From: an uncultured Thermoplasmata archaeon
GTDB taxonomy: Archaea; Thermoplasmatota; Thermoplasmata; Lutacidiplasmatales; UBA184
NCBI GenBank assembly: GCA_963749205.1
Contig: CAVVLW010000007.1
Location: forward strand, 390,794 to 454,793
DNA: 64,000 nt
Direction: 5' to 3'
Each line of letters starts with the position of its first letter. The first letter of the stretch is position 1. Position numbers and translations under genes: made by a program. Below, piece after piece: positions 764 to 2,126 of the stretch. The notes under the pieces were generated by a model. That model was given only the letters and a program-made list of their open reading frames with translations, made no database searches and was not told the origin of the DNA.

Positions 764-1675
764 TCACCCGTCCTGGGAGCGGCTGAGAGTGGAGGCGTTC
801 GCCGACCCACTTATTTCTGACGCGGCGCGGGGCGACCCACGTCGAGCGGATGGGGGGCCTTCCCAGCATTCGTGCCCGACCCGAAGGCCCGAACGATCGA
901 TTCCCAAGCGGTCGAGCATGCTCTCGCTCGTCTTGGATGCCAGGGGCGGCACGAAGAGGGTCGACACCGGACTCAACGGGGCCTCCAGCAGCTTCCCGAG
1001 CGGAACGACCCGGATCGATGACTCCAGGACGACGTAGGGGGACGCCTCGTAGACGACCACGTCATGTTCGGGTGGATACTGGGAGAGCAGCACATCCCTC
1101 AAAATGGAAAGACCGCGACGGTTGTCGCCGAAACCATCGAGATGAGCCTCGATCCTCCCGACAAGGCCCGCCTGCCAGAGGATCAGCGAGCTCCGGGGAT
1201 CGATCCTCCGTTCGCTCACCAGGAAGTCCGTGGCTTCGTAGCTCTGACAACCGCTCCGGGCGGGATCGATCCCGAGGTCCGCGAAGAGGCAGTCCTCGGC
1301 GGAGATTCCCGGCAGCATGCGAGCCTCGAGGCCCTCGGAACGAGCGATGCGGATCGCTTCGTGGGACGGGTAGACGAAGACCCCCGGATGACCGTAGAAC
1401 ACGGCGCACACGCTCAATCCCTTTCGGACGGGAGAAAGGATCCGCTCGATCATGGCCTCGTACGCGAGGGCGCGGGACTGACCCTCCAGATAGCAATCGG
1501 AGAGGGACTCGGTCGTGGGGTTCAACCGTCGCACCCACTCTTCCGCCGCCGGCTCGGCGACAAGGTAGAGTACCTTGTCCGCCCTCTCGATCTCCACGCG
1601 AGCCTCCCACGTGACGTGACGGACCAACTGTATTCCGATCCCAGCCACCACCAGGCGGACCGGACACGGACGCAC
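764..1675 (-). CDS. Borosin-type peptide alpha-N-methyltransferase (SAM-dependent, tetrapyrrole-methylase fold)
   Basis: 303-aa ORF with GTG start. LVVAGIGIQ...KVLYLVAEP...[64 protein letters not shown] matches, from memory, the OphMA/SonM methyltransferase core ([37 protein letters not shown]). Confidence 0.85.
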   Translation of the reverse strand: [303 protein letters not shown]

Positions 1676-1693
1676 CCATGTGCCCCGGCGGGC

Positions 1694-1912
1694 CTAGCTC
1701 AAGAACTGGAGGATCACGATACCGGGGTGGAACTTCAAGAGGAGCACCTCACGCACGGCCCGAATGTCCCCGGAAGCGATCGCCCGGGCGGCGTCGGGGC
1801 TCACGCCGTGTCGTTTCAGCACTTCCTCCGGGTTCTTCTTGTAGCTCTCGAGGAGGGCCGGGTCTTCCGAGACCTTCAAGAAGAAGTCCCGGAGGGCGGT
1901 GTCGTCGGCCAC
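1694..1912 (-). CDS. Split-borosin-like RiPP precursor peptide (72 aa)
   Basis: Its stop lies 18 nt upstream of the methyltransferase start on the same strand. MADDTALRDFFLKVSEDPALLESYKKNPEEVLKRHGVSPDAARAIASGD resembles the SonA-type helical recognition region. It is followed by a hydrophobic tail, REVLLLKFHPGIVILQFLS. Confidence 0.7.
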   Translation of the reverse strand: MADDTALRDFFLKVSEDPALLESYKKNPEEVLKRHGVSPDAARAIASGDIRAVREVLLLKFHPGIVILQFLS

Positions 1913-1935
1913 GATTTGCGCGAACGGGTCTGGAA

Positions 1936-1944
1936 CCTTAAAGG
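1936..1944 (-). promoter_or_regulatory. TATA-like box (CCTTTAAGG on minus strand) about 28 nt upstream of the precursor ATG
   Basis: An A/T island in otherwise GC-rich spacer. The same roughly 25-30 nt spacing to the start codon recurs at other genes in this window (leaderless-type architecture). Confidence 0.35.
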
Positions 1945-2126
1945 CTCGCTCGATGAGGGCCGGGCACTAAACGACTGTCTGCCCGTAGCCCGCGACACAG
2001 GGGCCAGAACCCTTCCTGGTTGGACGGGGGGCCCCCGCCTCCTCGGGAGCGTGGAGGCTCGCCGGGCTCGTGGGGGGCGTTACGACGGCCGTTGCCTGTC
2101 TTTAGAGGCGGGGAGCGCACGGATGA

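Follow-up and report, generated by a model that had tools for sequence, protein, structure and literature searches.

The stretch of DNA analysed here, referred to as the window, comprises 64,000 nt (positions 390,794–454,793 of the forward strand) of contig CAVVLW010000007.1 in assembly GCA_963749205.1, from an uncultured soil archaeon of the Thermoplasmata (Thermoplasmatota; Lutacidiplasmatales; UBA184). Two adjacent genes on its minus strand very probably constitute a Type IV (split) borosin operon in a Thermoplasmata chromosome, borosins being peptides that are made on ribosomes and modified after translation (RiPPs). One gene encodes the predicted precursor peptide and the other a predicted α-N-methyltransferase. 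The features of the locus, listed in the direction of transcription, are as follows.

1936..1950, minus strand: putative B recognition element (BRE)/TATA-like element AGCGAGCCTTTAAGG, 23 nt before the precursor start codon
1694..1912, minus strand: predicted gene for the borosin precursor peptide, 72 aa from a GTG start, coordinates including the stop codon
1742..1906, minus strand: borosin-binding domain (BBD) of the precursor, residues 3–57, assigned from a five-helix AlphaFold2 model and a fold match to SonA
1697..1741, minus strand: predicted core peptide, residues 58–72, LLKFHPGIVILQFLS, at a position matching the SonA core
764..1679, minus strand: predicted borosin α-N-methyltransferase gene; the GTG frame 1675–764 encodes 303 aa, and the product is probably 304 aa from ATG 1679
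1..698, minus strand: class III adenylate/guanylate cyclase gene, 5' part, with a GTG at 698, running off the window

The two open reading frames (ORFs) claimed in a first-pass annotation, which was made from the sequence alone, were found at 1912–1694 (72 aa) and 1675–764 (303 aa), on the same strand and 18 nt apart as read in the window. The coordinates given for the enzyme ORF are correct, but its start probably is not. Two further assemblies of the same organism, L081 (ENA) and L082 (Logan), carry a pair that is identical except for one base: the window has one extra C at 1657/1658, in the minus-strand run GGTCCGCC. In L081 and L082 the enzyme begins at an ATG equivalent to window position 1679, 14 nt past the precursor stop codon, and has 304 aa (MGASVSGRLVVAG...); the enzyme of a Thermoplasmata relative described below (L001) likewise begins with MSGRLVV. 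Since L081 and L082 lack the extra C, the enzyme in the window probably starts at ATG 1679, and the 303-aa GTG ORF is probably an indel artefact (an assembly error) or a polymorphism, affecting the first 7 residues alone. The public annotation of the contig has a shorter, 277-aa enzyme product (P0001). As homology to OphMA begins at residue 5–8, this product loses a conserved strand. The exact sequence of the 72-aa peptide was called as a gene on two contigs of public assemblies, and exact-sequence look-up of the 303-aa enzyme and the public 277-aa version matched no contig.

A phmmer search of the PDB with the enzyme returned dbOphMA (E = 1.2e-58), OphMA (8e-56), SonM (2.5e-51) and MroMA (1e-44), and the 25 best sequence matches were all borosin α-N-methyltransferases, with E-values from 1e-58 to 1e-44. 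In the same search, uroporphyrin-III methyltransferase (CobA) and CbiF reached 0.11 and 0.72, and there was no match to diphthine synthase. A PDB query with a Rhizobium homologue again placed OphMA, rather than SonM, at the top. Pfam assigned the broad TP_methylase family alone (3.6e-16) with no further domain. No NCBIfam model matched above its cut-off, cobM and cobI reaching E = 0.05–0.09. On these scores, the identity of a corrin, uroporphyrinogen or diphthine methylase (CobA, CysG, CbiF, Dph5) was rejected; no cobalamin gene was seen in the window context.

The three motifs that had been singled out as nearly identical to the OphMA core are indeed 13/14, 18/20 and 6/7 (YEATDFL) identical to dbOphMA and OphMA. 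The alignment with OphMA is free of gaps through the active site, so a position in the window enzyme equals the OphA position minus 4. Mutant data for OphA indicate that R72, Y76 and Y98 are needed for methylation and that Y66 and Q172 contribute (Song et al. 2018, PMC6108569); the essential residues correspond to R68, Y72 and Y94 in the window enzyme, and the contributing ones to Y62 and Q168. Residues Y62, R68, Y72, Y94-GHPG (95–98), F100, E127-D128-C129, W167 and Q168 are invariant in 41 homologues. They are nearly invariant in a wider set of 82 sequences including OphMA, in which Y62 is Tyr in 57. Window Y62 would also be the counterpart of SonM Y58, both being described as bonding the i−1 carbonyl. 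The antiSMASH borosin rule uses the motifs YGHP and DCLFAD; compared with the enzyme by eye, they were found within FYGHPGVF (residues 93–100) and AEDCLFAD (126–133).

The AlphaFold2 model of the enzyme has a predicted local distance difference test (pLDDT) score of 84, with residues about 270–303 predicted to be disordered. In a Foldseek search of the PDB, its top 50 matches were all SonM, OphA, dbOphMA or MroMA, with E-values down to 5e-28 and ~40% identity. The sequence comparisons predict a borosin-type backbone-amide methyltransferase that depends on S-adenosylmethionine (SAM) and forms a homodimer. To our knowledge, borosin methyltransferases are homodimers in all characterised relatives but one.

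The 72-aa peptide matched SonA in a phmmer search of the PDB, at E = 8e-9 over residues 6–54. Its single-sequence AlphaFold2 model consists of helices at residues 3–16, 18–26, 28–34, 39–47 and 50–57, followed by a tail with pLDDT below 50 at residues 60–72. The ten best Foldseek matches in the PDB were all SonA chains, after which came LigA (1bou_A). The best SonA matches superposed with a root-mean-square deviation of 1.5–1.7 Å over ~50 residues, and the template-modelling (TM) scores, normalised to the target, were mostly 0.72–0.79. The BBD is a five-helix bundle (Miller et al. 2021, PMC8429565). SonA is annotated as a member of Pfam LigA, and this family matches 8 of 13 related precursors. 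A kinship of the BBD with Nif11 or NHLP leaders was rejected, the matches being single, weak (Pfam Nif11 0.097, TIGR04351 0.0076) and not repeated in relatives. The tail (…HPGIVILQFLS) is aliphatic and stands at the position of the SonA core, which comprises residues 56–71 (the 16-mer Shewanellamide A) and is methylated at L63 and I65. The likely methylation sites fall within G64–L68; judged by position and residue type, I65–L68 are the best candidates.

These results bear out several proposals of the first-pass annotation: that the enzyme is unlike the CobA and diphthine class, that the N-terminal part of the peptide is helical and SonA-like, that its hydrophobic tail is comparable to borosin cores, and that the two genes form a split borosin pair. 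Two outcomes had been named in advance as speaking against that proposal; the enzyme does not cluster with corrin or diphthine methylases, and the peptide does not lack similarity to borosin precursors.

Relatives of the pair were collected by a scan of one genome per species, which gave 80 loci (L001–L080). A search of related genomes had been suggested earlier, and it located the pair in two other Thermoplasmata metagenome-assembled genomes (MAGs), in further archaea and in many bacterial loci. The nearest relatives lie on Thermoplasmata contigs of 13–215 kb. A large protein search with the 72-aa peptide returned the peptide itself alone, so precursor relatives were taken from the fetched loci. 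Enzyme identities and precursor tails are as follows; the corresponding tail in the window is GIVILQFLS.

L001, Thermoplasmata MAG: enzyme identity 79%; tail HPIIIVVFPRP
L002, Thermoplasmata MAG: enzyme identity 67%; tail GVLVVVVLPWAKPSKPI
L003, Ca. Lutacidiplasmatales: enzyme identity 57%; tail AWFITHVIKITHHGGH
L006 and L014, Nitrososphaeraceae: enzyme identity 52–53%; tail of L014 ITSVCYMLTHSDN
L037 and L043, Methanomassiliicoccales: enzyme identity 52–54%; tail of L037 VAMFVIYIPVPV…, tail of L043 VPIFWIIVR
Other loci, Actinomycetota, Acidobacteriota, Chloroflexota and Cyanobacteria: enzyme identity 45–60%

With a profile built from the window peptide, small ORFs of the BBD type were detected in about 64 of the 80 loci, mostly directly 5' of the enzyme gene. 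The profile found such a precursor in 6 of the 7 archaeal loci; in the remaining one, L002, a precursor was recognised by inspection. Across the relatives, the leader domain is conserved and the tails are variable and hydrophobic, with aliphatic or aromatic residues. In a neighbour-joining tree without support values, the enzymes of the window, L001, L002 and L003 formed one clade beside a clade of Actinomycetota, and those of Nitrososphaeraceae and Methanomassiliicoccales were placed elsewhere among bacteria. Archaeal enzymes occupy at least three separate places in the tree, and archaea seem to have acquired the family on at least three occasions.

Two other arrangements were observed among the homologues. 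In cyanobacterial loci (Microcoleus, Nostoc, Scytonema; L022, L023, L025, L028, L032 and others), a BBD precursor lies ~3 kb downstream of the methyltransferase, at about 9100–9600, between the gene for a TPR protein and a kinase-AAA_16 gene that follows closely. In place of an aliphatic core, the tail of this precursor consists of a Pro/Asp-rich repeat (…DPGPDPLPDPDPFPPSPP…), and this arrangement is possibly a different, undescribed borosin sub-type. Homologues from Thermoanaerobaculia, Gemmatimonadota and others (P0004–P0013, P0017, P0022) are ~515–528 aa long and outscore the single-domain enzymes, with E-values to 1e-135 and ~50% identity. Their length suggests tandem duplicated methyltransferase domains, like the published Type IX architecture.

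Upstream of the precursor gene, the TATA-like sequence CCTTTAAGG occupies 1944–1936, 23 nt from the GTG start codon, with its centre ~28 nt upstream, the distance given in the first-pass annotation. The motif AGCGA(G/A)(C/T)CTTTA(A/T)(G/C)G occurs at an identical distance from the precursor start in the Thermoplasmata loci L001 and L002. As this spacing is kept although the flanks have diverged, the element is more than a chance occurrence, and it is probably an archaeal BRE/TATA promoter. The 23-nt spacing implies a leaderless or nearly leaderless precursor mRNA. No sigma-70 promoter was found, nor any intrinsic terminator bearing on the operon.

The list of neighbours made earlier had missed the conserved gene downstream of the pair (698–<1), which begins 65 nt past the enzyme stop codon and encodes a class III cyclase (PF00211, Guanylate_cyc, 8e-16). 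Visual inspection of the window copy shows the metal-binding Asp residues (in FTDMVGYT and KATGDG) as well as a VNIAARLE motif. On L081 the protein continues past the window edge into a TolB_N-like module and then a TPR region; there the cyclase-TPR gene (7349–9274) is split into three overlapping frames, which look like assembly frameshifts. In L001, three full-length cyclase-TPR paralogues of ~640–660 aa (1518–3446, 3636–5558 and 6912–8900) flank the pair, and in L003 one such gene (6919–8853) follows it. The gene adjoining the pair is the sole cyclase gene in the window, in which no second precursor or methyltransferase was found either. The 65-nt spacer before it (699–763, minus strand) holds GCTTAATCTAAAGG, whose TTAA lies ~24 nt before the cyclase GTG, near the spacing of the precursor box, and the cyclase may have its own promoter and a leaderless mRNA.

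Similar neighbours recur among the 80 loci. Within 6 kb of the pair, a class III cyclase is encoded in 16 and a Ser/Thr kinase in 35; 49 have at least one of the two, which in most cases is directly adjacent. Of the 23 signalling neighbours examined by Pfam, 21 contain TPR, together with STAND (AAA_16 or NB-ARC) or a TolB_N-like module. The domain compositions by lineage are as follows.

Actinomycetota: cyclase, AAA_16 (STAND) and TPR
Acidobacteriota: kinase, TolB_N-like module and TPR
Chloroflexota and Myxococcota: kinase, STAND and TPR
Cyanobacteria: kinase and AAA_16; TPR on a separate protein beside the enzyme
Methanomassiliicoccales (L037 1955–4348, L043 1154–3619): AAA_16 and TPR, no output domain

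Outside their catalytic domains, the archaeal cyclase and the acidobacterial kinases are homologous (E = 8e-70), which indicates that the sensor is conserved and the output domain swapped. According to Imani et al. (bioRxiv 10.1101/2021.12.24.474128), the Pfam domain found most frequently in split borosin clusters is GGDEF (56%), often with TPR. The window pair has a class III cyclase (PF00211) and no GGDEF protein as its neighbour, which we read as a variant of this theme. PF00211 is absent from the one text supplement of that preprint available to us. Its Pfam table was not in readable form, and the literature on borosins with a cyclase, kinase or TPR protein offered nothing past the GGDEF report. 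Class III cyclases with TPR in Thermoplasmata may be interesting in themselves.

On the other side of the pair, the statement that no protease or transporter is adjacent stands for the protease only. Immediately upstream, the strand of the precursor also carries znuB (ABC-3), znuC and znuA, followed by a gene for a DtxR-type metal-dependent repressor (2127–5780, minus strand). ZnuABC and DtxR were rejected as cluster members, for they are next to the pair in none of the 80 loci, L001 and L003 included, and the adjacency is probably coincidental. Elsewhere in the window, at 23817–25157, 38737–40173 and 33934–37779 (minus strand), family matches (cysteine synthase, short-chain dehydrogenase/reductase and Rad50) begin only at residue 225–415 of the longest ORF; these may reflect spurious upstream extension in G+C-rich DNA, further indels, or gene fusions.

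The data presented here show the homology and fold of the two products, the catalytic residues, the order of the genes and the conservation of the pair, promoter and neighbour, and from them we infer enzyme activity, methylation sites, proteolytic release and a link to the cyclase in the following scheme. The conserved TATA-type promoter would give a leaderless transcript that encodes the 72-aa precursor and, 14–18 nt on, the ~304-aa methyltransferase. The N-terminal five-helix BBD of the precursor would dock on the enzyme, whose active site would clamp the flexible C-terminal tail. In the aliphatic stretch, most likely within I65–L68, one to a few backbone amide nitrogens would then be methylated serially, from N to C, with R68, Y72 and Y94, aided by Y62 and Q168, holding the amide and activating it for SN2 attack on SAM. 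As with Shewanellamide A, a short linear N-methylated peptide would afterwards be cut free by a protease whose gene lies elsewhere. The class III cyclase with its TPR sensor region would stand in for the bacterial GGDEF-TPR diguanylate cyclase, and such a replacement points to a signalling role rather than an antibiotic.

Several observations weigh against this interpretation. Archaeal borosins, the window pair included, appear to be known from genes alone. The window precursor itself scores below the Pfam LigA threshold and was assigned to no Pfam family. OphA Y63 is replaced by Ser59 in the window enzyme; this column is variable across the family, and OphA Y63F keeps its activity (PMC6108569). 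The monomer model of the enzyme superposes on the crystal structures at TM scores of only 0.43–0.50, which we tentatively attribute to domain arrangement, the model being a monomer of an interlocked-dimer enzyme. The window copy differs by one base at the 5' end of the enzyme gene. No protease or exporter was found near the pair, which makes a released product conjecture, and the apparent TATA-like element of the cyclase weakens the case for its co-regulation with the pair.

Some of these points would also fit a small ORF that encodes an accessory, LigA-like subunit instead of a substrate, or a pair that is an inactive relic: the missing Pfam family, the indel at the start of the enzyme gene, and the lack of a protease or exporter nearby. 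We consider this unlikely. The best sequence and fold match of the peptide is SonA, a proven substrate of SonM, and the tail that follows the domain is hydrophobic in all relatives, like known cores. The catalytic residues are all intact, the gene is uninterrupted with an ATG start in two other assemblies, and the G+C content at third codon positions (GC3) of 0.79–0.89 is similar to that of the adjoining genes and unexpected for a decaying gene. A very unlikely explanation is that bacterial DNA was mis-binned or mis-assembled into an archaeal genome, so that there is no archaeal borosin here. It would account for bacterial homologues (56–60% identity) that are as close as some archaeal ones, and for the scattered tree positions of the archaeal enzymes, a pattern that itself points to old horizontal transfers rather than contamination. 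However, the contig encodes a product bearing the N-terminal domain of archaeal type IV pilins (PF07790; 5771–6568, plus strand) within 5 kb of the pair, divergent from the DtxR-like repressor gene, and, further along, an archaeal-type Rad50; ThrRS, SufB and a membrane pyrophosphatase are encoded in the window as well. The G+C content of the pair (0.635–0.649, against 0.665 for the window) and its GC3 resemble those of the neighbouring genes, the putative promoter is of archaeal TATA type with a conserved leaderless spacing, and the contigs that carry the pair include two from Thermoplasmata, 215 kb and 76 kb long, and one of 595 kb. The archaeal setting and host-like G+C content proposed earlier are therefore upheld.

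A further explanation extends the borosin reading instead of opposing it: the pair may make a signal, in which the N-methylated peptide or the modified precursor is the ligand that switches the output of the co-encoded TPR sensor. That output would be cAMP/cGMP here, cyclic di-GMP in Gammaproteobacteria, and Ser/Thr phosphorylation in Acidobacteriota and Cyanobacteria. Across widely separated lineages, the neighbour met most often is a TPR signalling protein, whose output domain varies, and the homology of the archaeal and acidobacterial sensor parts, the GGDEF-TPR proteins of published clusters and the position of the sole cyclase beside the pair agree with this idea. The L001 and L003 cyclases also weakly match TIGR04510 and TIGR03903, which describe RiPP-linked cyclases/kinases, but these NCBIfam matches are far under the curated cut-offs. 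The evidence is one of genomic association, the related loci are non-independent samples, and the Nitrososphaeraceae and ~30 bacterial loci have no such neighbour within 6 kb. The signalling protein might equally regulate production of the peptide. We regard a signalling function as possible, though short of probable. We are a little more hesitant about its broader form, in which split borosins would be the peptide half of a widespread signalling circuit across bacteria and archaea. The co-encoded TPR protein would sense the N-methylated peptide or the helical leader domain, and its output module would have been exchanged time and again. Gammaproteobacteria have GGDEF, Thermoplasmata and Actinomycetota a class III cyclase, Acidobacteriota and Cyanobacteria a Ser/Thr kinase, and Methanomassiliicoccales a bare STAND-TPR protein. 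If this were true, the locus in the window would be an archaeal cyclic-nucleotide switch under peptide control, which the archaeon had acquired from soil bacteria. We know of no such archaeal switch that has been described.

As a split borosin operon, the window pair most resembles SonM/SonA of Shewanella oneidensis MR-1 (Type IV, PDB 7LTC), which produces Shewanellamide A. Both systems have a five-helix BBD precursor with a single C-terminal core, predicted in the case of the window, and a separate single-domain methyltransferase of ~260–300 aa, the two enzymes being ~40% identical. SonM residues R67, Y71, Y93, F99, E146, W166 and Q167 correspond to R68, Y72, Y94, F100, E147, W167 and Q168 in the window enzyme. 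In both, a nucleotide cyclase gene stands alongside and no protease is encoded in the cluster. The window differs in its archaeal host and archaeal TATA promoter, in its core (…HPGIVILQFLS, compared with …SYQSYLVISHGNGD in SonA), in the gene order of precursor then enzyme, and in the predicted disordered C-terminal tail, ~40 aa long, of its enzyme. The partner is a class III cyclase (PF00211, TolB_N-like, TPR) in the window and a GGDEF diguanylate cyclase in the son cluster. The latter also has a cation efflux pump; the window has none, only the unrelated ZnuABC importer upstream. The native role of the son cluster has been described as elusive (PMC10549244), and the recurrent TPR signalling partner offers a lead on the purpose of prokaryotic borosins.

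The best sequence matches of the enzyme are OphMA and dbOphMA, the Type I fused fungal enzymes of the omphalotin pathway. The YGHPG and AEDCLFAD motifs and the active-site residues are identical, apart from the Ser at the OphA Y63 position, and the same chemistry, iterative N-to-C backbone methylation, may be expected. In the fungal protein, however, the enzyme carries the core as a fusion at its own C-terminus, and methylation takes place within the dimer, whereas the window has a separate substrate gene with a docking domain. The neighbours of the pair share the combination of cyclase or kinase with TPR with TIGR03903 (TOMM kinase/cyclase fusion) and TIGR04510 (peptide modification system cyclase). 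The resemblance is one of domain composition and genomic role; with scores of 57.6 vs 400 bits and 28.5 vs 706 bits, the L001 and L003 neighbours are not members of these families.

Borosin methyltransferase homologues have already been listed in 11 archaea, 8 of them Halobacteria, by Imani et al. (bioRxiv 10.1101/2021.12.24.474128). These enzymes share with the window an archaeal host, a Type IV-like architecture and the lack of characterisation. The Halobacteriales/Streptomycetales cluster described there is divergent, with a mean identity of 28.5% to OphMA, whereas the window enzyme is ~40% identical and groups with the mainstream Type IV enzymes of soil bacteria. Crone et al. 2023 place borosins among bacteria and a small number of archaea, and a 2024 preprint reports borosin clusters 'in fungi, archaea, and bacteria'. 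The literature we searched, in which the published strain lists were not readable, gave no link between borosins and Thermoplasmata, Nitrososphaera or Methanomassiliicoccus. The novelty claimed for an archaeal borosin in the first-pass annotation therefore holds in that none is characterised, but not in that homologues are already published, and the window pair would not surprise a specialist. Miller et al. 2021 describe borosin pathways as the only known RiPP route that methylates the backbone of translated peptides, a modification associated with protease resistance and membrane passage. The characterised borosins are all fungal or bacterial, and the two-gene archaeal pair, with the varied cores of its relatives, forms an enzyme-substrate test set. 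What appears new relative to the known systems is the core sequence, together with a class III cyclase partner where most published clusters have GGDEF.

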